Source of the DNA: an uncultured Gammaproteobacteria bacterium
GTDB taxonomy: Bacteria > Patescibacteriota > Microgenomatia > CAYQLK01
DNA length: 64,000 bases
Assembly (NCBI GenBank): GCA_964445355.1
Contig: CAYUKQ010000003.1
Coordinates: 3,693 to 67,692 of the forward strand
Direction of reading: 5' to 3'
Part shown: piece after piece, positions 1-26,575 of the stretch
How positions within the stretch are numbered: position 1 is the stretch's first letter
How the letters are laid out: every line of letters starts with the position of its first letter
Translations under genes and position numbers: made by a program
The notes under the pieces: generated by a model
The model's input: only the letters and a program-made list of their open reading frames with translations
Databases searched by the model: none
Told to the model about the DNA's origin: nothing

Positions 1-88
1 GATGGCCAGACTTCCGAAGATCGAGTGATTTGGTGTGAAACGGAGGTTACTTAAGCCACAAACGGGGTGAAAGCTGCCTTTTTCGAAT

Positions 89-128
89 GGCATCTGATAC
101 GCAGAAATGTGTTTCGGATGCCTTTTTT
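89..128 (+). terminator. Rho-independent terminator (GGCATC...GGATGCC stem then T-run) ending an upstream unit that begins before the window
   Basis: Inverted repeat ggcatc/ggatgcc followed by TTTTTT, seen directly in the sequence. Confidence 0.5.
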
Positions 129-139
129 ATGAATAAAAT

Positions 140-180
140 ATCCCGTAGTATTTGATAAGAAAGAAATAAAATGTTAAAAT
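140..180 (+). promoter_or_regulatory. Motif-promoter module copy 1: ATCCCGTAGTA then TTGATA -35, 17-nt spacer, TAAAAT -10
   Basis: Hexamers and spacing read from the sequence; same module recurs at about 870, 2228, 5977(-), 41534(-), 46903(-), 59161 and 62961(-). Confidence 0.55.
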
Positions 181-225
181 ACTGCTTCGCAACTTCACAT
201 TTTCTGGCGAGGTGAGAGTGTAGCT

Positions 226-786
226 ATGGTTGCCGTGTCTGTTGACTTAGTCGGACATCGGTTCGACTGGGGTCACACTGACAGGGTGTGGCTCTATAAT
301 CAATTTATCACAGCTTGCCGTAAGGCAGGCCTTGATATTCGCATGACTGAGACCATGTTCAAGCTCAAGATCGGAACCCGGAACGAGTTTCTGGTTTTTG
401 ATTTTGCACGCTTTGTGACGGATCCGTCTCAGTCCCAGTACGTGCCGTTGGTTGCGGATGTCTACATCAGCTACTCAGACGATGAGGGAGTCGAGCATCT
501 CATCCGTCCAGCTGTTGTGGCTCGCGATCACAGCAAAGATCGGCACCCGATCGGGTGGGCATTCGAGACCGGCCGATTGATTCGGTACAACGGCCGTTTT
601 CAGACGTTCACTGTCGATTTTGGAGAACCGATCAGGTATATCCGTCCCAGAAAAAGTCGGCACCGTCCCAAGTATTTCGCTCTCGGTTCGGTAATTTTGG
701 CCTTTTACTGGGTCAAAAAATACCTTGCCAAACGAAGGAAAAAGAAACGATCCGAGCGTCATTTGTCGTCTAAGAGCGGCAAGTGA
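226..786 (+). CDS. Hypothetical protein, GC-rich (about 55% GC), C-terminal hydrophobic anchor plus basic tail (KRRKKKRSERH)
   Basis: ATG ORF of 186 aa, own promoter upstream and terminator downstream; composition differs from backbone; no recognisable domain. Confidence 0.6.
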   Translation: MVAVSVDLVGHRFDWGHTDRVWLYNQFITACRKAGLDIRMTETMFKLKIGTRNEFLVFDFARFVTDPSQSQYVPLVADVYISYSDDEGVEHLIRPAVVARDHSKDRHPIGWAFETGRLIRYNGRFQTFTVDFGEPIRYIRPRKSRHRPKYFALGSVILAFYWVKKYLAKRRKKKRSERHLSSKSGK

Positions 787-828
787 TCTGGGGGTTTCTG
801 ATTTTGAGTGGAGGTGTTAGCGACCTTT

Positions 829-862
829 GCGCTCTAGGTAATAACTAGGGCGCTTTTTTTTT
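829..862 (+). terminator. Rho-independent terminator (gcgctctag / ctagggcgc stem with one G-U pair, then T9)
   Basis: Hairpin followed by T-run immediately after the 226-786 stop. Confidence 0.65.
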
Positions 863-889
863 GCAAACTATCCTATAGTTTGATATAAT
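861..889 (+). promoter_or_regulatory. Promoter TTGCAA-N17-TATAAT with ATCCTATAGTT element (870-880) inside the spacer; GGAGG RBS at 915-919
   Basis: Consensus hexamers with 17-nt spacing; motif copy 2. Confidence 0.55.
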
Positions 890-925
890 CAGCCTTAAGA
901 ACGTTTAAATTCTGGAGGCTAGCTC

Positions 926-1345
926 ATGCCAACTTTGATGGTCATGGTCCACGACCATCGGCAGGTGTTCGTGAAGGGTGAGTTCGGGCTTCGCGCGGAT
1001 TTTGCTGCCAGCCTGGTCGACGGCGGGCTTGGGAATAGCTTCCGCTTCCATGGCCTGCCGATTACAGAAGCATACTTTCACATCGACGGAGATGCGGAGG
1101 TGCTAACGATCAGGTTGCACCCGCAAGATGATCGGGTCAACGGTGTTGATCGGCTTGAGTTGGTGTTCGATCACGACTCCAATAAGCCTTTCTATGCTGT
1201 TTACTCCCGCTTGTGTGCGTGTGGGGCTTACCAGTTCCGCGTACGCCATTCGGAGGCAGATTTGACTCACACTCTGAGTCGGATCGTGGTCTCGTATCGT
1301 GAAGTTCGCTTAGCAGAATCGGACGCCTCAACAGTAAAGCCGTAA
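926..1345 (+). CDS. Hypothetical protein, GC-rich cassette gene
   Basis: ATG ORF of 139 aa preceded by GGAGG 7 nt upstream and followed by a terminator; no recognisable domain. Confidence 0.6.
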   Translation: MPTLMVMVHDHRQVFVKGEFGLRADFAASLVDGGLGNSFRFHGLPITEAYFHIDGDAEVLTIRLHPQDDRVNGVDRLELVFDHDSNKPFYAVYSRLCACGAYQFRVRHSEADLTHTLSRIVVSYREVRLAESDASTVKP

Positions 1346-1361
1346 ACGCTCGTATTTCTCT

Positions 1362-1398
1362 GTGGCATCTGACTATTAGTCGGGTGCCACTTTTTTTA
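1362..1398 (+). terminator. Rho-independent terminator (GTGGCA...TGCCAC stem then T7)
   Basis: Inverted repeat plus T-run directly after the 926-1345 stop. Confidence 0.6.
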
Positions 1399-1415
1399 TG
1401 GTTTTTTCTTCAATC

Positions 1416-1444
1416 TGGACAAATTAGGCCTAGAGTATTAGAAT
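1416..1444 (+). promoter_or_regulatory. Promoter TGGACA-N17-TAGAAT followed by ATCCCGAG (partial element)
   Basis: Hexamers and 17-nt spacing read from the sequence. Confidence 0.45.
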
Positions 1445-1489
1445 ATCCCGAGCACTTTTGCAAAAAGAGAGGTTCGAAGCTAACTTGCC

Positions 1490-2107
1490 GTGGTTGAAGT
1501 GAAAACGGTTCGGATCCCGGTGTCGCAGGTTAACCGCGACAGATTCAGACACACGACCAGCAACGTTTTCGCGTGGCCGGACTTGGTGACTCAGCTCATC
1601 ATGTCCTCGTCGGCGGTCTTGGGGCGCAACAAGCCGGATGTCAACACTTTGGTGCTGGCCCGGGTCGAACAGGTCAGGCTGGATCAGCGGTTGCTGCTGC
1701 GATTCGTTGCGGCTGGCAACAACGAGGATTTGCACTTGGCGGGTGTGCGGATCGAGCACGGGAGCGAACGATTGGTTACTCCAATGGTTCTCGATTCGAT
1801 GCCGATGATGGCAGCCGTCAAGGGTGTGGCCGGCGTGCCTGGCCAGACCAAGCCACACCATGGTTTTGCCGTGGCATCGCTCAAGGGTATTCTGCCTCAG
1901 GCGCGTGCTTTGGTGCTTCAGCTGCAAGTCCCGCAAGGGGCGGAGGGGCACGTTTTCGGTTGTTTGGAGCCGGTGCGTGATTCGTCCGAGGGCGAAGAGG
2001 AAGTCGCGTTTTTCAGGCATCAGCGCAGATACCCGTCCGGCCAGGGGTACGCTCGGGTCCCTTCCGATGGACAGTATCCGTTGCGACGGCGGTTCACTCG
2101 GGACTAG
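1490..2107 (+). CDS. Hypothetical protein, GC-rich cassette gene (GTG start)
   Basis: 205-aa ORF co-oriented with flanking + promoters and terminators; the opposite-strand 241-aa ORF is R/H/Q-rich with no promoter and is judged spurious. Confidence 0.5.
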   Translation: MVEVKTVRIPVSQVNRDRFRHTTSNVFAWPDLVTQLIMSSSAVLGRNKPDVNTLVLARVEQVRLDQRLLLRFVAAGNNEDLHLAGVRIEHGSERLVTPMVLDSMPMMAAVKGVAGVPGQTKPHHGFAVASLKGILPQARALVLQLQVPQGAEGHVFGCLEPVRDSSEGEEEVAFFRHQRRYPSGQGYARVPSDGQYPLRRRFTRD

Positions 2108-2176
2108 CTCCGAGAAGACTGGTATTGCGATCGAGCAAGCAAGCCGCGTCTGCAACTTGTGCGGATCGAAACAAAG

Positions 2177-2214
2177 GGCGCCTCTGTAAAAAGAGGCGCT
2201 ATTTTTTATTTTAA
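2177..2214 (+). terminator. Rho-independent terminator (GGCGCCTCT...AGAGGCGC then TATTTTTTATTTT)
   Basis: Perfect 9-bp stem plus T-run after the 1490-2107 stop. Confidence 0.65.
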
Positions 2215-2227
2215 TGCTGATTTGGTT

Positions 2228-2268
2228 ATCCTGTAGTGTTGGATTTTTATTGTCGTTGTGGGTATAAT
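2228..2268 (+). promoter_or_regulatory. Motif-promoter module copy 3: ATCCTGTAGTG then TTGGAT, 18-nt spacer, TATAAT
   Basis: Read from the sequence; drives the 2351 gene. Confidence 0.55.
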
Positions 2269-2350
2269 CTCGGACTTAGTTCGTTAACAATCCTCGGGGC
2301 AGCCGAAAAAAGAAAGACAAAAATTCACCGCAAGCAAGGAGTATACGATC

Positions 2351-2800
2351 GTGGGAGTACAAACTCGGGTAAGTCATGTCGACTTTCACACACCTCTTGA
2401 TCACAGGACCAGAATGGTTCTGGAAGGGGGGCAGTTTGAGGCCTGGATTTCGGCCCTGGTCAGGGCAATCCAGGACAGTCAGCCGATTTGGCACAAATCG
2501 GTCGATGGCGTCAGAGTCGAGCCGATCTATCGGATGTATTTTCCTTACCGCAAGTGGCTGATCTTTGGCCTGAGTCTGCCTGAAGGCGGGTCGGGACTGA
2601 AGGTGGTCAACATTGAGTTCCAAACAGATCACCCCAACGTTCCCATCATCAATTCCAGGGTTTTCCCAGAAGGAATTTCGGGGGGAGACAAATTCGTCGG
2701 ATGGCGTTATTTTGACGCTGTCGAACTTCGCGACTACGCCAAGCAGCTGACCGGAATCCATTTTTCGGTTGAGCTGGTAACCACACAGGAGGAGGTCTAG
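2351..2800 (+). CDS. Hypothetical protein, GC-rich cassette gene (GTG start, AAGGAG RBS 7 nt upstream)
   Basis: 149-aa ORF with strong SD; preferred over the antisense 301-aa ORF 2276-3181, which has no promoter or RBS. Confidence 0.6.
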   Translation: MGVQTRVSHVDFHTPLDHRTRMVLEGGQFEAWISALVRAIQDSQPIWHKSVDGVRVEPIYRMYFPYRKWLIFGLSLPEGGSGLKVVNIEFQTDHPNVPIINSRVFPEGISGGDKFVGWRYFDAVELRDYAKQLTGIHFSVELVTTQEEV

Positions 2801-2891
2801 GTTTATCAAAACGTTACGCATTCCCCTGAGGAACCGGCGGTATTGGTGGGCACGCCAGCCGCAAGATCGAATTCCTGTACTGCTAAGCGAC

Positions 2892-3251
2892 ATGATCAAG
2901 CAGTCGGAAGATCCTGAAGGAGCGCTGCAAGGACTGATCCTGAGAGTCGAAGAAGCCAAGATTTTCGGAGCGCGAGCGGTTGCGTTCCGCTTGGAACGTG
3001 CTTTTAGTCGGGGGCCGAAGTTTGCGGCGAGAGTGTATCTCGAGTCTCTTGATGGGGTACGGTTGGAGGCTGCACCGTCAGCCGGCATCGACGGATCGGG
3101 AACGGGTAACCGGATTTTCATGTACAAGGAGTTCTTGACCGCTTTGGGTTCGGCAGATTGTCTGGTTTTTGAGGTCGACACTCTTGACTCTAATCCAGGC
3201 GTGTTTGTTCGAGCACTCCAGTCGGTCGGCAGCCGCCTCCGAAGATCTTGA
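2892..3251 (+). CDS. Hypothetical protein, GC-rich cassette gene
   Basis: 119-aa ATG ORF, co-directional and followed by a terminator. Confidence 0.55.
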   Translation: MIKQSEDPEGALQGLILRVEEAKIFGARAVAFRLERAFSRGPKFAARVYLESLDGVRLEAAPSAGIDGSGTGNRIFMYKEFLTALGSADCLVFEVDTLDSNPGVFVRALQSVGSRLRRS

Positions 3252-3269
3252 ACAGCAAAAGAGCAATAT

Positions 3270-3303
3270 GGGTACTTGTAGAAATACAGGTACCCTTTTT
3301 TTG
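3270..3303 (+). terminator. Rho-independent terminator (GGGTAC...GTACCC then T9) closing the five-gene GC-rich cluster
   Basis: Hairpin plus T-run; GC content falls to backbone level right after. Confidence 0.65.
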
Positions 3304-3511
3304 GATCAGGAGAGTGATGATTAAGACAAAGGATTTTGGTTGCATACTAAATATTGGTGTGGTTATATGAATATATGGGAGGAAATCTGTTGCAGGTTAC
3401 CCTAAATGTATTGTTGGAATTGATATTTTGCCTGGGTCTGGTAGTCGTGTTTTTCCTAAAATTGCGATTTTTTAGTTCAAGTCTATTATTTTCAAACAAA
3501 GGGAGAAAAAA

Positions 3512-5128
3512 ATGAAAAGAATGTTAAAAAAAGTATATTTTGCCTTGATTTCGGTTTTTGCGGGGACTGTGTTAGCCACAGTGGCTGTAAGGGCGGCAGA
3601 CACGACGATCGTGGTGTTACCGGGCGATATGGCGACGAGTGTGGCAGATGTGATTGCAGATCCCAGTAAGTGGATGTTTTATAACGATGAAACTGACACA
3701 ATTGACAATTCACTTGGGTCGTTTGTTTTGGGCCCGGGAGTTACCCCGCTTGGTAATGATAGTATCCAGATCTCAGTCAGCGGTACTCAGAGGCGTAATT
3801 TGGCGACTTATCAATTCAGCGGTACGACCTTGTCTTCAATTACCGAGCTTAAGTTTAGTACTTTTAACCCATCGGCAGGAAATGGCGGAAGTGCCAGTCG
3901 TTCAGGATACTTGCATTTCAACGCAGATTTTAACGGTTCGGATACTTGGCAGAGAAGGTTGGTCTATGTGCCGTCCGTGAATGGGGCAGTGATACAGGAT
4001 ACTTGGCAGGAATGGGATGCAATAGATGGGGGAAATGCAAAATGGCTGTATTCCGGTTCAACCTGGCCGGTGACCGGGGAGCCGGGTTCGACGACAAAGA
4101 CTTGGAGTCAAATATTAAGTGACTATCCGTCGGTCAGGATGCGGGTTACAGATTCATTCTTGGGAATTCGTGTCGGTGAGCCGTATGCTGACGGATATAC
4201 AGAAAATATTGACGGTTTTAAGTTAGGGGTGAGTGGAAATACTAAGATATTTGATTTTGAGGCTTCGGTAGCGCCGGGTGTTCCGACAATTATTTTGCCG
4301 GCAAATAATGCTACGGTGACGAGTTCGGCACTAGTTAAGATCGATTGGACGGATTCGACTGGCGGTTCTAATCCACCGTTTGAATATATGTATGAAGCAT
4401 TTAACGATGCCGGGTATACGACGAGTATTTATACCAGCGCGTGGTTGTCAGTCTCCGAAATACCCACGCCGGGTACGTCACCTGGGGTATATTACGTTCG
4501 AGTTAAGGCTAGAAATGCATTAGGTGATGAGACTGCTTGGAGTAATGACGCCGTTAATCCATACAAAATTACGGTCATTGCTGATGGTCCGGTCTTGGTT
4601 GGGCCACCAACAGATAAGAATCAGTGCAAGAGGAACGGTTGGAGGGTATTTAATAATCCAACGTTTATCAATCAAGGTCAATGTGAAAAGTACGTTAAAG
4701 ATCACAGAGATGATGGCAAGGCGGAGGGGGATTTGCGTTTGATCAATCCTAATCAGAGGATCAAGTTCAAATTATCAGAGAAGGATGTCTCAAACTCTAA
4801 CCATCACAAATCAAAACATAATTATGTTGAATACTGGAATTATGAATATCCTGGTATTTTGCACTACAAAGCAAATGTGATCTGTGCTGAGGTTGATAAG
4901 ATCACAAAAGAAGCGCGTTTTGTATTCCAAATTCCACCAGGTTGGCCAGGTCTAACGGGCTTATATGTAACTGCTTATGTTAAGGATACGAAACAAAAAG
5001 GTGTTGCTGATCTTTATGGTCATGCAGCAACCGGTGATCTGACGATAGCTACGGCTTGGTGTGATACTGGTGTTGGGTTTGCTCCGGCAATGTACTCAGT
5101 TGTAAAAGGTAAAGTTGAAGTGAAATAA
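3512..5128 (+). CDS. Large secreted or surface protein (538 aa) with N-terminal signal peptide, Thr/Ser/Gly-rich beta-type repeats and C-terminal cysteines
   Basis: Signal peptide MKRMLKKVYFALISVFAGTVLATVAVRAA; GGAGAAAAAAATG RBS; backbone GC. Confidence 0.7.
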   Translation: MKRMLKKVYFALISVFAGTVLATVAVRAADTTIVVLPGDMATSVADVIADPSKWMFYNDETDTIDNSLGSFVLGPGVTPLGNDSIQISVSGTQRRNLATYQFSGTTLSSITELKFSTFNPSAGNGGSASRSGYLHFNADFNGSDTWQRRLVYVPSVNGAVIQDTWQEWDAIDGGNAKWLYSGSTWPVTGEPGSTTKTWSQILSDYPSVRMRVTDSFLGIRVGEPYADGYTENIDGFKLGVSGNTKIFDFEASVAPGVPTIILPANNATVTSSALVKIDWTDSTGGSNPPFEYMYEAFNDAGYTTSIYTSAWLSVSEIPTPGTSPGVYYVRVKARNALGDETAWSNDAVNPYKITVIADGPVLVGPPTDKNQCKRNGWRVFNNPTFINQGQCEKYVKDHRDDGKAEGDLRLINPNQRIKFKLSEKDVSNSNHHKSKHNYVEYWNYEYPGILHYKANVICAEVDKITKEARFVFQIPPGWPGLTGLYVTAYVKDTKQKGVADLYGHAATGDLTIATAWCDTGVGFAPAMYSVVKGKVEVK

Positions 5129-5162
5129 CAGCGTCTAAACTAGCTTTTTAAGTTAAAAGTTA

Positions 5163-5200
5163 AGAAAAAACCCGCTCGTGCATGTAAGCATAAGCGGGTT
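5163..5200. terminator. Bidirectional intrinsic terminator (AACCCGCT...AGCGGGTT stem flanked by A-run and T-rich tail)
   Basis: Hairpin between convergent genes 3512-5128(+) and 5286-5819(-). Confidence 0.6.
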
Positions 5201-5285
5201 GTTGGTTGTTGTGGGGGTCAGAAGCTTGCTGATCTTTCGAGCGTTTCTGGCCCTCTAGGCTGAACGGCCCGGAGGAGTCGTGCTG

Positions 5286-5819
5286 CTAGGGATGGAAGAA
5301 GTGGGCGACGAGGTTGCCTTTGTGGCTCTCGGTCAGTACATGGTATTCCCACGTGCCCCAGATCGACCATTCGGGATTGCCGACGTAGCGCGGATCGTTT
5401 TGGCTAACGATTTGGTAGTGATACGCGCCGTTGCCGTCGTATCCGCTGCAGTGGATCATGTTCGAAATGACCCCATGGTCCATGTAGGGGTCGTTGTTGA
5501 AGTCGCCCTTGGTGTGGATGCGATAGAAGCAGGTCGAGAGTGTGTCGGCGTCGAGGTCGGCGATTTCGGTGATGCCGGGAGAAGTGTAGACTCGCCCATC
5601 GCCGAGATCCCAGTAGTAGTCACCTGTCGCGTCGTAGGCGTAGATGCTGTCGTACGTGCACACGACCTGGACACCGGCATCGCCGATGCCGTTATGGTCG
5701 GTGTCCCCGTTGCGGGGAATCATGCAGTTCGTGTTCTTGCCGCCGGCGGCCGAGACGGTCGCGGTTGTGACGAGCATGAGGCAGAAGAGTGCGGTGGTGA
5801 TCAGGATGAGTTTACGCAA
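5286..5819 (-). CDS. Secreted small Cys-, Asp- and Gly-rich protein, GC-rich cassette gene (TTG start, signal peptide)
   Basis: N-terminus MRKLILITTALFCLMLVTTATVSAAGG; about 58% GC; own promoter and terminator. Confidence 0.6.
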   Translation of the reverse strand: MRKLILITTALFCLMLVTTATVSAAGGKNTNCMIPRNGDTDHNGIGDAGVQVVCTYDSIYAYDATGDYYWDLGDGRVYTSPGITEIADLDADTLSTCFYRIHTKGDFNNDPYMDHGVISNMIHCSGYDGNGAYHYQIVSQNDPRYVGNPEWSIWGTWEYHVLTESHKGNLVAHFFHP

Positions 5820-5947
5820 GGTCAGAGTTACTCCTGTTTTTTGCAGAGATGTGAAAGATCAAAATGTTTCGCCCCCACGGCGGAACAAGTGCATTTTTGA
5901 CCAGAGCCAGCGGTTAAGCAGGTCCGGATCAATCAGTGCGATTGCGA

Positions 5948-5990
5948 ATTATAGGTTATAAATCTGTGATAATCAATCGTAAAAGGATAT
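5948..5990 (-). promoter_or_regulatory. Motif-promoter module copy 4 (minus strand): ATATCCTTTTACGA then TTGATT-N17-TATAAT
   Basis: Reverse complement of 5948-5990 read directly; drives 5819->5286. Confidence 0.5.
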
Positions 5991-6016
5991 TAGTAAATTT
6001 TTGCTGTGTTTGAAAA

Positions 6017-6793: not shown

Positions 6794-7552
6794 ATGGAAA
6801 ATGGATGGTCAGAGACAAATACTCCGAATCAGTTTAGCGGAAATCCTGATGGTGGTGTATTAAGAGGGTTACATTTTAATTTGATCGCAATATTATCCAT
6901 TGTTGTGGCAGTGATTTTTTTGGTGATGTCCTTTGTAATTTGGAGAGGTTTTTTTGTTGCTTATGAGACGGGTGGTGATATTTTCGAGTCGAACTCAAGG
7001 GCTATAAATAGTGAGTTAGACAAATCGGTTGAGTTGGCTAAGGTTGAAACGGGTGTCCCGTCTAATAAGGACCTGCTGCAGATCATGCAATATCAGGATT
7101 GGGAAATATTTGTTGATGAGCAGTACAAATTCCAACTGCAATATCCAAAAGGGTTCGCTGTGGTCAGGCAGGCGGTAGGTGCCAATGATGATACGGTCGA
7201 ATATCAGCGGCTGTTTGTTGGGGCTGGGGATCAGATCAACCCGCCATTTGCAACCAATGGAATAGGTATGACGGTTTTGCTTTTTAAGACTGACAAAAGT
7301 TTTGACGAAATAATTCAGGTAGTTACTGATCAGTTTTTGGGAAGTGAGGCGGTATTGTCTGACTATGAAATCGAAGATGGGGTGGTTGGTAAACAGCTCG
7401 AGTTTGTGACTCCGGACAAACAGAAAGTCATCCAAAGATATTTCAAAGCTCATCTTGATAATTATTATTATGAAGTCAAGGTGATAGTTGACGGAGAAAG
7501 TTTTGAATCGACTGCCAGAAAGATGATAAATACTTTCAGGATTGCAAAGTAA
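6794..7552 (+). CDS. Hypothetical membrane-anchored protein (single N-terminal TM helix)
   Basis: 252-aa ORF with TM segment IAILSIVVAVIFLVMSFVIW. Confidence 0.55.
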   Translation: MENGWSETNTPNQFSGNPDGGVLRGLHFNLIAILSIVVAVIFLVMSFVIWRGFFVAYETGGDIFESNSRAINSELDKSVELAKVETGVPSNKDLLQIMQYQDWEIFVDEQYKFQLQYPKGFAVVRQAVGANDDTVEYQRLFVGAGDQINPPFATNGIGMTVLLFKTDKSFDEIIQVVTDQFLGSEAVLSDYEIEDGVVGKQLEFVTPDKQKVIQRYFKAHLDNYYYEVKVIVDGESFESTARKMINTFRIAK

Positions 7553-9397: not shown

Positions 9398-11161
9398 ATG
9401 CTTGAATCTGAAAAGGTAAGAAGTATTGGCGGAATTGAGAGCCCATCGGCAGAAAATATCGAACGGGAGAGTAAGTTTTTGGTTCGTGATCTAGAGAGTG
9501 TGCCGTTTTCTGAAGCGAGTGGAGAGAAAATTCATCAGGGATATTTGTATATCGGTGAAAATGGGGATGAGCTGCGTGTAAGACAAAAGGGTGAAAAATA
9601 TTATTTGACTAGAAAAAGCGGTTCTGGGTTAGTACGTGAGGAGGAGGAAGAGCAGATTACAGAGGATGAATTTGAGCTTTTATATCAACAAACAGAAGGG
9701 TTAAGAGTCGAAAAGACCAGACATATTGTTAGGCATGGCGATTTTTTAATAGAAGTTGACGTATTTGAAGGCGGTTTGGATGGTTTGGTTACTGCGGAGG
9801 TGGAATTTGATGACGAGGCTAAAAGTTTGGGGTTTGTTGCGCCTAATTGGTTGGGAGAGGATGTCACTGAATCGGGTCTATATTCGAATCAAAGATTAGC
9901 AAAATTATCTCAACAACTTGATGCGACTGATGAAGGAGCTAGTGTTGAAGTTGTCAGACGTGATACCGAGCCGTATAGATTTGGACTGAAAGAAGGGATG
10001 AATTTGCTAGTTGAAAAAACGGGTAATGATATGAGATCCGGGCAGGTTGTTGTTGCAGTAGCTGGCGGTTCCGCTTCAGGGAAAACAAGTCAGGTTGCGG
10101 ATAAATTGGTTCATGCCTACCAAGGGAATTCAGTAATGCTGTCGATGGATGATTACAGTAGAGGAAGCAAGTATGTCGATCGTTTGAAACAGCAAGGAGT
10201 TGAGATCAATTACGACATGCCGGATTATATTGATATCGATCTGATGGCAAGGCATTTGGCACTTTTGAAAAACGGAATGAGTGTTTGGGTGCCGAAGTTT
10301 GATTTTTTGACCGGTGAGCCGTCTGAGCAAAGGCGCTTGATTAAGCCCGAGGACCTGATTGTTGTGGAGGGGTTGTTTGCACTTGATGAAAGAATCGCCA
10401 GGTTATCGGATACGAATGTGTTTGTTGATATTAGTATGCATGGTCGGGCGGTGAGGCGGTTTTTTCGGGATGTTAAAAGAACGAGCATGATACCTAAGGA
10501 TATAATTCGGTATTTTGCTGAGGTGGTTGAGCCGATGCATGATAGGTATGTGTTAAGCGGGATGAAGCAGGCGGATGTGGTGATCGAGAATGAATATGAT
10601 CCTCAGATTGAATCAGGTGATGCCGGTCATCGCGAGTTGCAGCTAAAGTTTGAATCCGCGCTGCGTGAAGAGGATGTGATAAAAGTTGGAGGAATCAAAA
10701 TGGACGAATATGAACAGGCGGACGGTTATTATGAGCCATTTGATCCGGTGCTCAGAGGAAGAGGGGAAAGTCTGAGGATTCGACGAGAAGGTGATAAGGT
10801 GCTGTTTACCTATAAAGGTCCAAGACGGGATTCTGGAGTGAGGAAACGTGACAGATTTGACGCAGTCATTGACGAGCAGACCGCAGAGATATTTGTGAAG
10901 AAGTATGGGGTATGTGTTATGGAGTTATTAAAAAAACGCAAAGTATTTAGCTTAGGATCAATGAGTGTGGCGATCGATCGGGATTTGATCAGAATGACCC
11001 AAGATGGGGCGGAGTTTTTGCCAGATCATGTAGAAATTTGCCTGGATAGAGAAGAGATCACTGAAAGTGATAGGATGTTATTAGATAGATTAGGGTTAAA
11101 TATGGCAGATGCAGTAATCGAATCTTATCAGGATTTGTTGAAAGGAACGGTGGAATTATGA
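9398..11161 (+). CDS. Tri-domain protein: CYTH (triphosphate tunnel) - uridine/cytidine kinase-family P-loop kinase - CYTH
   Basis: N-terminal IERESKFLV and LRVRQKGEKYYLTRK (CYTH); VVAVAGGSASGKTS, LSMDDYS, NYDMPDYIDIDLM, LIVVEGLFAL (Udk/PRK family); C-terminal ELQLKFES and LRIRREGDKVLFTYKGP (second CYTH). Confidence 0.75.
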   Translation: MLESEKVRSIGGIESPSAENIERESKFLVRDLESVPFSEASGEKIHQGYLYIGENGDELRVRQKGEKYYLTRKSGSGLVREEEEEQITEDEFELLYQQTEGLRVEKTRHIVRHGDFLIEVDVFEGGLDGLVTAEVEFDDEAKSLGFVAPNWLGEDVTESGLYSNQRLAKLSQQLDATDEGASVEVVRRDTEPYRFGLKEGMNLLVEKTGNDMRSGQVVVAVAGGSASGKTSQVADKLVHAYQGNSVMLSMDDYSRGSKYVDRLKQQGVEINYDMPDYIDIDLMARHLALLKNGMSVWVPKFDFLTGEPSEQRRLIKPEDLIVVEGLFALDERIARLSDTNVFVDISMHGRAVRRFFRDVKRTSMIPKDIIRYFAEVVEPMHDRYVLSGMKQADVVIENEYDPQIESGDAGHRELQLKFESALREEDVIKVGGIKMDEYEQADGYYEPFDPVLRGRGESLRIRREGDKVLFTYKGPRRDSGVRKRDRFDAVIDEQTAEIFVKKYGVCVMELLKKRKVFSLGSMSVAIDRDLIRMTQDGAEFLPDHVEICLDREEITESDRMLLDRLGLNMADAVIESYQDLLKGTVEL

Positions 11162-11709
11162 AGCGGGCGCCGGTGGGGGTAAAAATTCATCATATAAATA
11201 TTCGTCAGAGTATTTCGATCATTTTGCTTAAGCTGGTATTGCTGGAGCTGATTGCTTCTTCAGGGTTTTTGTTTGTGTATTTTAGTTTTGATAGTGAGCT
11301 TATCAGAATGAGTATGCTTAATTTGTTTGAGACTTTTTTCGGTTGGATATTTTTGGTACTGATGCTGGTTAAGATTTTTATTACGGTCTATATAATTCTG
11401 GACTGGCTGAATATGTATTACGAAGTTAATGGTGAATATATTTATATAAGAAAAGGAGTGATTTGGACGACCGAGCAGAAGTTTGCGATCGAAAATTTTG
11501 GTGATGTTACGCTTGAACAAAGCTTGATGGGGAGGATATTTAATTTCGGAAATATTAGGATCTTTGATAAGGAGCTGAAAAGAGACTTTTTGCTTTATCT
11601 GATTCATAATCCGAATAAATATTACGAAATATTAAGCTCGATTAATCCTGCCGGGGACAAAGAAAAGAGAGTGATTCGCCAACATTTCAGTTCGGATATT
11701 GATCTGTAA
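11158..11709 (+). CDS. Membrane protein with bacterial PH domain (bPH_2/YdbS-like), ATGA-overlapped with the upstream gene
   Basis: Two N-terminal TM helices followed by IRKGVIWTTEQKFAIENFGDVTLEQSLMGRIFNFGNIRI (bPH_2-like). Confidence 0.6.
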   Translation: MKRAPVGVKIHHINIRQSISIILLKLVLLELIASSGFLFVYFSFDSELIRMSMLNLFETFFGWIFLVLMLVKIFITVYIILDWLNMYYEVNGEYIYIRKGVIWTTEQKFAIENFGDVTLEQSLMGRIFNFGNIRIFDKELKRDFLLYLIHNPNKYYEILSSINPAGDKEKRVIRQHFSSDIDL

Positions 11710-11713
11710 GATA

Positions 11714-11751
11714 TTGACACCGAATTAGCACTGTTGTATATTGAGTGCTAA
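11714..11751 (+). promoter_or_regulatory. hsp20 promoter (TTGACA-N17-TATATT) overlapping a perfect CIRCE operator TTAGCACTG-N9-GAGTGCTAA (11725-11751)
   Basis: CIRCE consensus TTAGCACTC-N9-GAGTGCTAA matched 17/18 in the sequence. Confidence 0.8.
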
Positions 11752-11774: not shown

Positions 11775-12209
11775 GTGAAAGATATGGCGATTGTTAAGTG
11801 GAATCCATGGAATTTGTCCTCAATATTGGATGATGATTGGGATATGCCGACACTGCCTGCACGAGTGGGTCAGGGGTTAAATGTTTATGAAACTGAAGAT
11901 TCGATTGTGGCCGAGGCGGCTATGCCGGGCGTAAGTGAAAAAGACATCGAAGTCAGTGTTGACGATGGTGTTGTGCACGTAACCGGATCCTCTTCTTCGA
12001 CTAAAGAAAATAAAGAAGGTCGAAGATACTTCATGTCCAGTATGGCTTCGACATTTAATTATTCTTTCAGACTGCCTGAAGGTGTGGCTGGGAATAAGGA
12101 GCCAAAGGCTGAGGTAGAACACGGCGTACTTTACTTGAATTTTCCTAAAGCTGCTAAGACAGAACCGAAGAAGATCAAAGTAGGTGTTCGTGGAGAAAAG
12201 AAGGCTTAA
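11775..12209 (+). CDS. Hsp20/alpha-crystallin family small heat-shock protein
   Basis: Alpha-crystallin domain pattern; AAGGAGG RBS; CIRCE upstream. Confidence 0.85.
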   Translation: MKDMAIVKWNPWNLSSILDDDWDMPTLPARVGQGLNVYETEDSIVAEAAMPGVSEKDIEVSVDDGVVHVTGSSSSTKENKEGRRYFMSSMASTFNYSFRLPEGVAGNKEPKAEVEHGVLYLNFPKAAKTEPKKIKVGVRGEKKA

Positions 12210-12345: not shown

Positions 12346-13152
12346 ATGGAAAACAAAACACCAACTGATCAGTTAATTAACTTAAAGGGTAAAACTGCAA
12401 TCGTTACCGGTGGGGCGGTAGGTATTGGCTTGGGTATCGTGACTAGACTGGCGGAAGCCGGAGCAAATGTGATGATCGCTGATGTTAATCAAGAAAAAGC
12501 TGATAAGTCGGCAAATGATCTATCGCAAACTGGATTGAGTGTTAAATCCAAACTTTGCAATGTAGCGGATGAGTCGGCTGTAGAGGCGTTGGTTGCTGAA
12601 ACGGTTGAAGTTTTTGGTTCGGTAGATATTTTGGTTAATAATGCCGGAATTTATCCAAATATTCCGCTTTCGAAGATGACGACTGAGGATTTTATGATGG
12701 TAATTGAAATTAATTTGAAAAGTGTTTATTTGACTACAAAGCATGTTTCTGAGCAGATGATTAAACAGGGTGGTGGAGGAAAGATCATTAATGTGACCTC
12801 GATCGATGCGCTTCACCCATCGATGATTGGTTTGGCTCACTATGATGCTTCGAAGCATGGTGTTTGGGGTTTTACAAAAAATTCCGCACTTGAGCTTGCT
12901 CAGCACAAAATTTGGGTCAATGCGATTGCGCCTGGTGGCATTGCCACTCCTGGTGTTCAAGCGGGGACTGGTGGTTCGGTACCGCCAGAGGAAATGGCTA
13001 AAATAATCGAGGCATTTATGGCAAATATTCCAATGCGTAGAATGGGCGATCCGGATGAGATCGGCAAAGTGGCGCTATTTTTGGCTTCAGAGATGTCTTC
13101 GTATATGACTGGTTCGCAAGTGGTGGTTGATGGCGGAGCATTGTTAAGCTAA
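12346..13152 (+). CDS. SDR-family NAD(P)-dependent oxidoreductase (3-oxoacyl-ACP reductase-like)
   Basis: TGGAVGIGLG cofactor motif, NNAG, YxxxK region. Confidence 0.8.
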   Translation: MENKTPTDQLINLKGKTAIVTGGAVGIGLGIVTRLAEAGANVMIADVNQEKADKSANDLSQTGLSVKSKLCNVADESAVEALVAETVEVFGSVDILVNNAGIYPNIPLSKMTTEDFMMVIEINLKSVYLTTKHVSEQMIKQGGGGKIINVTSIDALHPSMIGLAHYDASKHGVWGFTKNSALELAQHKIWVNAIAPGGIATPGVQAGTGGSVPPEEMAKIIEAFMANIPMRRMGDPDEIGKVALFLASEMSSYMTGSQVVVDGGALLS

Positions 13153-26491: not shown

Positions 26492-26575
26492 GCCGGGGTG
26501 GCGGAATTGGTAGACGCGCACGTCTCAAACACGTGTGAAAGCAATTTCATGAGGGTTCAAGTCCCTCCTCCGGCA
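26492..26575 (+). tRNA. tRNA-Leu (anticodon CAA), class II with long variable arm
   Basis: Cloverleaf traced by hand: acceptor GCCGGGG/CTCCGGC, anticodon loop CTCAAAC, T-arm GAGGGTTCAAGTCCCTC, discriminator A. Confidence 0.85.

Follow-up and report, generated by a model that had tools for sequence, protein, structure and literature searches.

The 64,000-nucleotide (nt) stretch of contig CAYUKQ010000003.1 analyzed here (hereafter the window) encodes a protein of 587 amino acids (aa), in which a uridine-cytidine kinase (UCK)-like P-loop kinase is flanked by two CYTH domains of the triphosphate tunnel metalloenzyme (TTM) type. Judged by sequence and predicted fold, the protein belongs to a family that is a prokaryotic relative of the TTM–UCK module, a kind of enzyme so far studied only as TTM1 and TTM2 of Arabidopsis (AtTTM1 and AtTTM2), and the family adds to this kind, known from plants, a new prokaryotic variant with an extra TTM domain that is predicted to be catalytic. 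With moderate confidence, we propose that the window protein is a salvage kinase gated by a triphosphate-binding pseudo-TTM, whose ligand may be removed by a tethered tripolyphosphatase. The hosts of the family are mostly Patescibacteria and DPANN archaea, whereas Pesquera et al. term the TTM–kinase family plant-unique (PMC9582702) and Vogt et al. describe the CYTH cluster with a phosphoribulokinase domain as exclusive to Viridiplantae and Amoebozoa (PMC8233210); the prokaryotic family lies outside the coverage of both papers. Literature searches returned no description of the prokaryotic three-domain family.

The initial annotation, made from the sequence letters, had read this gene as a CYTH–kinase–CYTH fusion within a single protein, and domain searches bear out this architecture. 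Pfam CYTH matches residues 20–143 with 37.6 bits and residues 425–532 with 47.2 bits when each domain is scanned alone, both above the gathering score of 23.2, and PRK matches residues 218–398 with 85.6 bits, likewise above its gathering score. The PRK match extends over profile positions 1–189 of 196, and all three matches hold when the thirds of the protein are scanned separately. The AlphaFold2 (AF2) model of the protein has a mean predicted local distance difference test (pLDDT) score of 85.6 and a predicted template modeling (pTM) score of 0.62, with low confidence at residues 1–18, at the linker of residues 178–190, and at the last six residues. A hydropathy scan of the fusion protein found no hydrophobic segment, the maximum value being 0.94.

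The kinship with the plant enzymes is evident from a single alignment across several domains. The profile built from 38 family sequences (alignment A1) matches AtTTM1 (7z66) in one continuous stretch, from profile position 185 to 524 and from chain residue 26 to 356 (E 9.8e-46), which spans the helix preceding the P-loop, the kinase, and the TTM domain; in the AF2 model of the window protein, this helix comprises residues 197–212 and precedes the P-loop strand. AtTTM1 (7z67) is also the top Foldseek match of the model, with 408 aligned columns (E 1.2e-23). Model and crystal structure agree in their folds and differ in the arrangement of their domains, the global root-mean-square deviation (rmsd) being 14.9. 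Additionally, the family and AtTTM1 carry the same lid motif, R-[TA]-G-Q-x-P, and where UCK2 has His117, both have a small residue. In AtTTM1, the TTM domain is catalytically incompetent, both glutamates of its ExExK motif being replaced, and it reaches into the site where the kinase binds its nucleoside, which locks the kinase in an inactive state (Pesquera et al., PMC9582702).

The N-terminal CYTH domain corresponds along its whole length to NeuTTM (2fbl/3typ), with 44% identity in the Foldseek alignment and E-values of 1.4e-27 by phmmer and 2.5e-47 with the family profile. Its ExExK motif reads E22-x-E24-x-K26 and its ExE motif E134-x-E136, while R60 and R62 form the RxR pair and K73 together with K106/R108 supply further basic residues. 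Among the 121 aligned relatives on which the conservation counts in this analysis are based, each of these residues, as well as D121, is kept in 116–121 sequences, and K73 in 120. Tyr-28 and Lys-52, the proposed catalytic dyad of NeuTTM, a highly specific inorganic triphosphatase (PMC3440374), are matched in the alignment by Y49 and K73, both of which are invariant in the 38 sequences of A1. The N-terminal domain has a complete catalytic set and, on the strength of these residues, looks fully competent.

The C-terminal CYTH domain presents a different picture. Its nearest solved relatives, found with profile A2, are SaTTM (7ns8, E 7.8e-21) and PH1819 (2een, E 1.1e-16). The ExExK site reads E413-x-Q415-x-K417, with the glutamine in 120 and E413 in 119 of the 121 relatives. 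The ExE site reads E546-x-C548, in which position 548 is Arg in 108 relatives and Cys in 8, the latter being the residue of the window's clade. The family motif fvEiR aligns with fiEiE of SaTTM, which equates E546 with Glu135, a metal-1-type ligand, and position 548 with Glu137. The basic tunnel residues R460, R462, K473, R482, R484, K512, and R514 are kept, as are the DxY motif and the C-terminal Y577, whose counterpart tyrosine lies in the plug helix of SaTTM and AtTTM1. In ygiF, the ligands of metal 1 are the substrate and the first ExE glutamate, while metal 2, which places the water for its attack, is coordinated by three glutamates, namely the two of ExExK and the second of ExE; mutation of the metal-2 residues strongly lowers activity (PMC4641920). 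Since a metal-1-type site is kept and two of the three metal-2 ligands are lost, the C-terminal domain would be expected to bind triphosphates but to be impaired in their hydrolysis, and its tunnel is probably a ligand-binding, non-catalytic pseudo-enzyme.

The same residue pattern could also be read as that of a one-metal, Vtc4-like phosphotransferase, which would build phosphate chains from a nucleoside triphosphate (NTP), or transfer them, and whose product would be trimmed by the N-terminal tripolyphosphatase. Vtc4p has basic residues in place of the acidic patch and keeps metal site 1 (PMC4641920), and this is paralleled in the family by the arginine that replaces the second ExE glutamate in most relatives and by the retention of Glu546 and Glu413. 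However, of the two acidic-patch positions examined (out of four), one is basic, and the window's own clade has Cys548 instead of the arginine. Furthermore, AtTTM1, the closest characterized homologue, has an inactive TTM domain, and no gene related to polyphosphate (polyP) is found in the gene context; thus, we regard this alternative as very unlikely.

The initial annotation had envisaged a nucleotide-signaling or nucleotide-salvage module. The salvage part is supported by the AtTTM1/2-type module and by a fusion to uracil phosphoribosyltransferase (UPRTase) described below, whereas the signaling part does not fit the evidence, no cyclase signature being present. If the protein made a second messenger, one of its CYTH domains would be a cyclase of the class IV adenylate or nucleotidyl kind that uses nucleotides from the kinase, and the bPH_2 membrane protein encoded directly downstream would be the effector. 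CYTH enzymes do include cyclases, relatives of the window protein bear the NCBI product name 'class IV adenylate cyclase', and the C-terminal domain has weak matches to the CyaB-type structures 3n0y and 2fjt (E ~1e-5). However, the signature HFxxxxExExK is required for a true class IV adenylate cyclase (Vogt et al. 2021, PMC8233210), and HF precedes neither ExExK-type motif of the window protein, where Ser-Ala stand before E22 and Gly-Asp before E413 (positions -6/-5); HF is likewise missing from the consensus of the family. TIGR00318 reaches 38.6 bits against a cutoff of 57.95, and two metal-2 ligands are lost in the C-terminal domain, whereas both metal sites are occupied in CyaB (PMC4641920). 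Moreover, NeuTTM, the type to which the N-terminal domain belongs, has no significant adenylate cyclase activity (PMC3440374), and the bPH partner is not conserved. A synthase of this kind is extremely improbable, and the adenylate cyclase reading was rejected because HF is missing, TIGR00318 stays under its cutoff, and the metal site has lost ligands.

The kinase domain retains the elements expected of its fold. Its P-loop, GGSASGKT, contains K229; D251 is the general base, the ribose-binding D273 lies within N271-x-D273-x-P275, and R353, R354, R357, and D358 belong to the lid. K229, D251, D273, R353, and R357 are present in all 121 relatives and R354 in 118, while the P-loop, N271-x-D273-x-P275, and a Tyr or Phe at position 301 are kept in all or nearly all of them. 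The top matches in the PDB, by sequence as well as by fold, are Udk/UCK enzymes, i.e., the Udk of T. thermophilus (3asy) and human UCK1/2. The position of His117 in UCK2 is taken by Gly306 in the window protein (Gly in 74 and Ser in 41 of the relatives) and that of Arg176 by Met364 (Gln in 92, Met in 13), and AtTTM1 has Ser and Gln at these two positions. We take His117 and Arg176 of UCK2 to be the readers of the pyrimidine 4-position.

The family is large. A word-indexed search returned 190 relatives; among the 120 matches listed, most are 550–590 aa long and aligned over nearly their full length, and the few whose source is named come from Patescibacteria groups and from one Micrarchaeota archaeon. 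Relatives are named 'class IV adenylate cyclase', 'uridine kinase', or 'CYTH domain-containing protein' in the databases. An exhaustive phmmer search against 1.84 billion representatives of 50% identity clusters gave 199 clusters at E <= 1e-30. When 255 collected sequences were sorted with domain hidden Markov models (HMMs), 173 proved to be N-CYTH–kinase–C-CYTH proteins and 73 kinase–C-CYTH proteins, the latter being the plant arrangement, along with a few other forms. The CYTH domain that precedes the module occurs in at least two subtypes: in P0250, P0255, and P0275, the same kinase–CYTH module follows a CYTH domain of another subtype (ELELKF, ELEVKF, or EQEVRF; ~200 aa). One prokaryotic protein of 718 aa, P0248 (L094:4001-6157), is a kinase–CYTH–UPRTase fusion, with a Pfam UPRTase match of 134 bits and a dense gene context of prokaryotic type. 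Since uridine kinase and UPRTase both yield uridine monophosphate (UMP), the fusion speaks for a function in the salvage of pyrimidines. The P0248 gene overlaps an HD-domain gene upstream.

Because the kinase and the C-terminal CYTH domain constitute the same module as the UMP-forming TTM1/2 and a UPRTase fusion is known, a function in salvage fits the family. Patescibacteria are generally held to rely on salvage. In the mechanism that we infer, the Udk-like P-loop kinase core would serve salvage by phosphorylating a nucleoside, with uridine or cytidine as the most likely candidate. The C-terminal tunnel would bind a triphosphate ligand, such as inorganic triphosphate (PPPi), short polyP, or an NTP, without hydrolyzing it, and would gate the kinase, as has been proposed for AtTTM1. 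The N-terminal NeuTTM-type domain, held on a flexible linker, would hydrolyze PPPi or a related triphosphate, and it might clear away the ligand sensed by the C-terminal tunnel. In the window's Curtissbacteria-like clade only, the bPH_2 membrane protein would be co-translated with the enzyme.

Several observations weigh against this mechanism. The equivalents of His117 and Arg176 of UCK2 are not conserved, being Gly/Ser and Gln/Met, and the Udk equivalog models remain under their cutoffs (NF004018, 125.1 versus 180; TIGR00235, 120.7 versus 220.3). In vitro, AtTTM1/2 convert uridine to UMP with ATP, but at 0.04–0.1 per min, a turnover so low that the true substrate may differ even in plants (PMC9582702). 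The UPRTase fusion is represented by one cluster only. Additionally, the C-terminal domain, unlike its counterpart in AtTTM1/2, retains the first glutamate of ExExK as well as that of metal 1, which leaves room for residual or different catalysis there, and the inter-domain geometry of the AF2 model is uncertain, as its pTM score and its rmsd to AtTTM1 indicate, so that the plug mechanism is drawn by analogy.

The substrate-related points among these speak at the same time for a kinase that acts outside pyrimidine salvage on another hydroxyl-bearing metabolite (a different nucleoside, a riboside precursor of a vitamin, or a sugar), in which case the tunnels would handle the triphosphate of that pathway. 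The relatives within PF00485 that appear among the PDB matches are indeed diverse and include phosphoribulokinase, pantothenate kinase, and nicotinamide riboside kinase. However, the best of those matches in both sequence and fold are Udk/UCK, the ribose-binding D273, Tyr/Phe301, and the lid arginines are kept, and the UPRTase fusion, along with the formation of UMP by AtTTM1/2, indicates pyrimidines. Another substrate is thus considered unlikely. The triphosphate-gated salvage kinase that we favor can also be extended to a bolder form, which we find distinctly doubtful. Here, the kinase would be self-resetting, in that the C-terminal tunnel would switch the kinase upon sensing PPPi or short polyP (or an NTP), while the active, tethered tunnel at the N-terminus would destroy the same ligand; the plant module would have an origin, or a sister group, of Patescibacteria/DPANN type; and the bPH protein would anchor the enzyme in trans in the Curtissbacteria-like clade. 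If this were true, PPPi would gain a defined regulatory function.

The second gene of the unit encodes the bPH_2 protein, to which the fusion gene had been annotated as translationally coupled through an ATGA overlap, and a direct reading of the sequence confirms the overlap. The gene junction is GAA TTA TGA, in which the second gene starts at the ATG of 11158–11160, and a Shine-Dalgarno-like GGAACGGTGGAA, kept across the window's clade, lies 5' of the start of the bPH gene. The second open reading frame (ORF2) contains a bPH_2 domain (PF03703) at residues 83–138, with 36.5 bits against a cutoff of 22, and ahead of it two hydrophobic segments, whose 19-residue windows are centered at 24–35 and 60–77.

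The bPH gene was sought with a bPH-subfamily HMM in 80 genome loci and in contigs encoding specific homologues. A sequence search with the bPH protein returned 23 homologues; one bears the name 'membrane protein YdbS with pleckstrin-like domain', and the source of another is given as Candidatus Curtissbacteria. The gene lies directly 3' of the fusion gene in six loci of one clade, i.e., the window, L001, L002, L083, and L081/L082, whose enzymes are 80, 60, and 47% identical to the window protein in global alignments (48% for the L081 protein in search listings). The 4-base ATGA overlap recurs in L001, L002, and L083, and in L081 the genes abut as TAAATG. However, these loci are wholly syntenic, with the order MgsA, VIT1, fusion, bPH, (Hsp20), SDR, YchF, S6, SSB, S18, CtpA; since the whole block is conserved, the adjacency of the fusion and bPH genes is not independent evidence of a functional link. 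No bPH copy was found by the subfamily HMM within the flanks of any of the 23 other family loci, and five distant bPH lineages (34–43% identity) were not located beside a fusion gene, their contexts being unrelated. At each of the other family loci with sufficient flank, the genes 3' of the fusion gene are unrelated, and no other conserved neighbor was found, the contexts seen being TrmB/DUF4349, ATP synthase/MetK, HPP, and RNR/DHH. With reverse look-ups from the five distant homologues negative, a conserved module of the fusion and bPH_2 genes was rejected. The gene pair is thus conserved only within its own syntenic clade, which largely amounts to the outcome that the initial annotation had named as speaking against its reading, and the framing of the bPH protein as a signaling effector is unsupported. 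The pairing is clade-specific and does not define the system, and whatever the bPH protein may do, e.g., tether the enzyme to the membrane, is peculiar to this clade.

Within this clade, the bPH_2 protein might nevertheless pair genuinely with the enzyme, tethering or regulating it at the membrane in a manner that parallels, in trans, the anchor of the plant proteins; this would be compatible with a triphosphate-gated salvage kinase. Overlap or abutment is seen in all five clade lineages, down to 47% enzyme identity, while hsp20 and an upstream 235-aa gene vary. The bPH protein is the more tightly constrained of the two products, with identities to the window of 96.7 versus 80.1, 80.9 versus 60.0, and 51.9 versus 46.8% for the orthologues in L083, L002, and L081, respectively. 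Members of 60–80% identity share the C-terminal enzyme tail QDLL[KR]GTVEL, and the plant TTM1/2 are tail-anchored membrane proteins. Against these points stand the synteny of the MgsA-to-CtpA block in the same genomes, the missing bPH gene at all 23 other family loci, and the unrelated contexts of the distant bPH lineages, one of which adjoins an SDR gene instead. The tail may be conserved because it overlaps the ribosome-binding site of the downstream gene, and the available excerpts of the literature on known YdbS/YdbT proteins connect them with envelope stress and the handling of bacteriocins rather than with nucleotides. On balance, we consider a genuine pairing possible, if somewhat unlikely.

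At L086:3233-4618, the bPH homologue P0128 (39% identity) directly follows an SDR gene whose product is 60% identical to that of the window SDR gene (12346–13152), and no CYTH–kinase gene is nearby; the bPH–SDR adjacency may outlast the bPH–fusion adjacency. The distant bPH loci L084, L085, L088, and L095 are repeatedly found near genes for PPDK/PEP-utilizer, cupin, Crp-family, PAS histidine kinase, or Usp proteins, which hints at a different, stress- or signaling-related context for that subfamily. The fusion orthologue at L001:6001-7719 contains one in-frame stop in the pre-kinase helix (…EFGL*EGLS…), which could reflect a pseudogene, a sequencing error, or recoding. Both L001 and L002 are labeled 'uncultured Gammaproteobacteria', and their gene order matches the Patescibacteria-type block of the window. 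The pair lies among housekeeping genes. PADLOC gave no defense-system match for either protein, and an anti-phage defense system is unsupported.

Table 1. Features of the fusion–bPH gene unit. Coordinates are those of the whole window; both genes lie on the + strand.
Feature	Coordinates	Strand	Basis
Fusion gene (TTM, UCK-like kinase, TTM), 587 aa, soluble	9398..11161	+	ORF list, Pfam, homologues, AF2
N-terminal CYTH/TTM domain, NeuTTM-like, residues ~20-170	9455..9907	+	phmmer, Foldseek, residue conservation, dyad alignment
Low-confidence linker between N-terminal TTM and the rest, residues 178-190	9929..9967	+	pLDDT <50; gap-rich and variable in alignment A1
Udk/UCK-like P-loop kinase, including helix 197-212, residues ~192-402	9971..10603	+	Pfam PRK, PDB alignments, conservation counts
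C-terminal CYTH/TTM domain, SaTTM-like fold, residues ~405-580	10610..11137	+	Pfam CYTH, profile A2 vs 7ns8, motif counts
bPH gene, YdbS-like membrane protein, 183 aa	11158..11709	+	Pfam bPH_2, hydropathy, 23 homologues
ATGA stop/start overlap of fusion and bPH genes	11158..11161	+	Direct sequence reading
Transmembrane segments of ORF2, then bPH_2 domain	~11206-11403, then 11404-11571	+	Hydropathy, Pfam
Promoter-like site TTGACA-17-TATATT, after bPH gene and before hsp20	11714..11742	+	Consensus scan, 11/12

The promoter-like site that follows the bPH gene, near-consensus and of sigma-70-like type, likely marks the downstream end of the two-gene unit, as judged from a match to the consensus only. 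A simple scan found no intrinsic terminator 3' of the gene pair, no sigma-70-like site was scored upstream of position 9398, and neither gene has a paralogue within the 64-kb window. An hsp20 gene (11775–12209) stands directly downstream of the promoter-like site; it is present in the syntenic loci L001 and L083 and absent from L002 and L081. Upstream, at 6794–7552, the window has a 252-aa ORF without a Pfam match, and L081 has a 262-aa gene, likewise without a Pfam match, at the same position before MgsA. The GC skew of the window is positive in all 2-kb bins (0.07–0.38), its G+C content is 0.46–0.51 at positions 1–6000, 28–30 kb, and 40–46 kb and ~0.41 elsewhere, and one tRNA (26492–26575) is the sole match to an Rfam family in the 64 kb.

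These results bear on how the module is viewed and named. A module that two papers have called plant-restricted is now found to be widespread in the ultra-small Patescibacteria and in DPANN archaea, where it usually comes with an extra, intact domain of tripolyphosphatase type and once with UPRTase. The plant TTM1/2 affect senescence, immunity, and flowering time. Being small and soluble, the prokaryotic forms should be easier to study biochemically and offer a tractable system for questions on TTM1/2 and on inorganic triphosphate. They would also tie the module to the salvage of pyrimidines, a route held to be indispensable for organisms unable to make nucleotides. Moreover, the database name 'class IV adenylate cyclase' is misleading for this family.

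Compared with known systems, the family is closest to AtTTM1/TTM2 (7z66/7z67), with which it shares the extra helix and the UCK-like P-loop kinase followed directly by a TTM domain, in which the ExExK motif is degenerate and the basic tunnel intact. Unlike AtTTM1/2, the window protein has the additional N-terminal TTM domain with its complete catalytic residues, and it lacks the coiled coil and the C-terminal tail anchor of the plant proteins, ending 7 residues past the TTM domain. The degeneration also differs, as the plant cluster is without both ExExK and ExE, whereas the family loses only the second ExExK glutamate of that motif and keeps E413 along with the metal-1 glutamate. The family hosts are prokaryotes, while the plant module has been described from Viridiplantae and Amoebozoa. 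With the UCK enzymes (3asy, UCK1/2), the kinase has a common fold (TM-score ~0.75–0.8 on the target), as well as the P-loop, the general-base Asp, the ribose-binding Asp, and the lid arginines; however, a linker to the TTM domain takes the place of the C-terminal helix of UCK, the equivalents of His117 and Arg176 are not kept, and the Udk equivalog cutoffs are not reached.

Among the tunnel enzymes, NeuTTM (NE1496 of Nitrosomonas europaea) has the ExExK, RxR, and ExE motifs and the Tyr-28/Lys-52 pair that recur in the N-terminal domain; however, NeuTTM is a stand-alone protein of the 151-aa class, whereas its homologous domain in the window is tethered to a kinase–TTM module and has a predicted activity only. 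SaTTM (Saci_0718) and the stand-alone archaeal TTMs have in common with the C-terminal domain the basic residues and the plug-helix tyrosine, but SaTTM, an active triphosphatase, carries ExExK and ExE, whereas the family domain has ExQxK and ExR/C. Finally, ORF2 resembles the YdbS/YdbT type of bPH_2 protein in having two N-terminal transmembrane segments followed by PF03703. This type has, in the excerpts noted above, no known link to nucleotide enzymes, and the contexts of the ORF2 homologues outside the window's clade are unrelated to the fusion gene.

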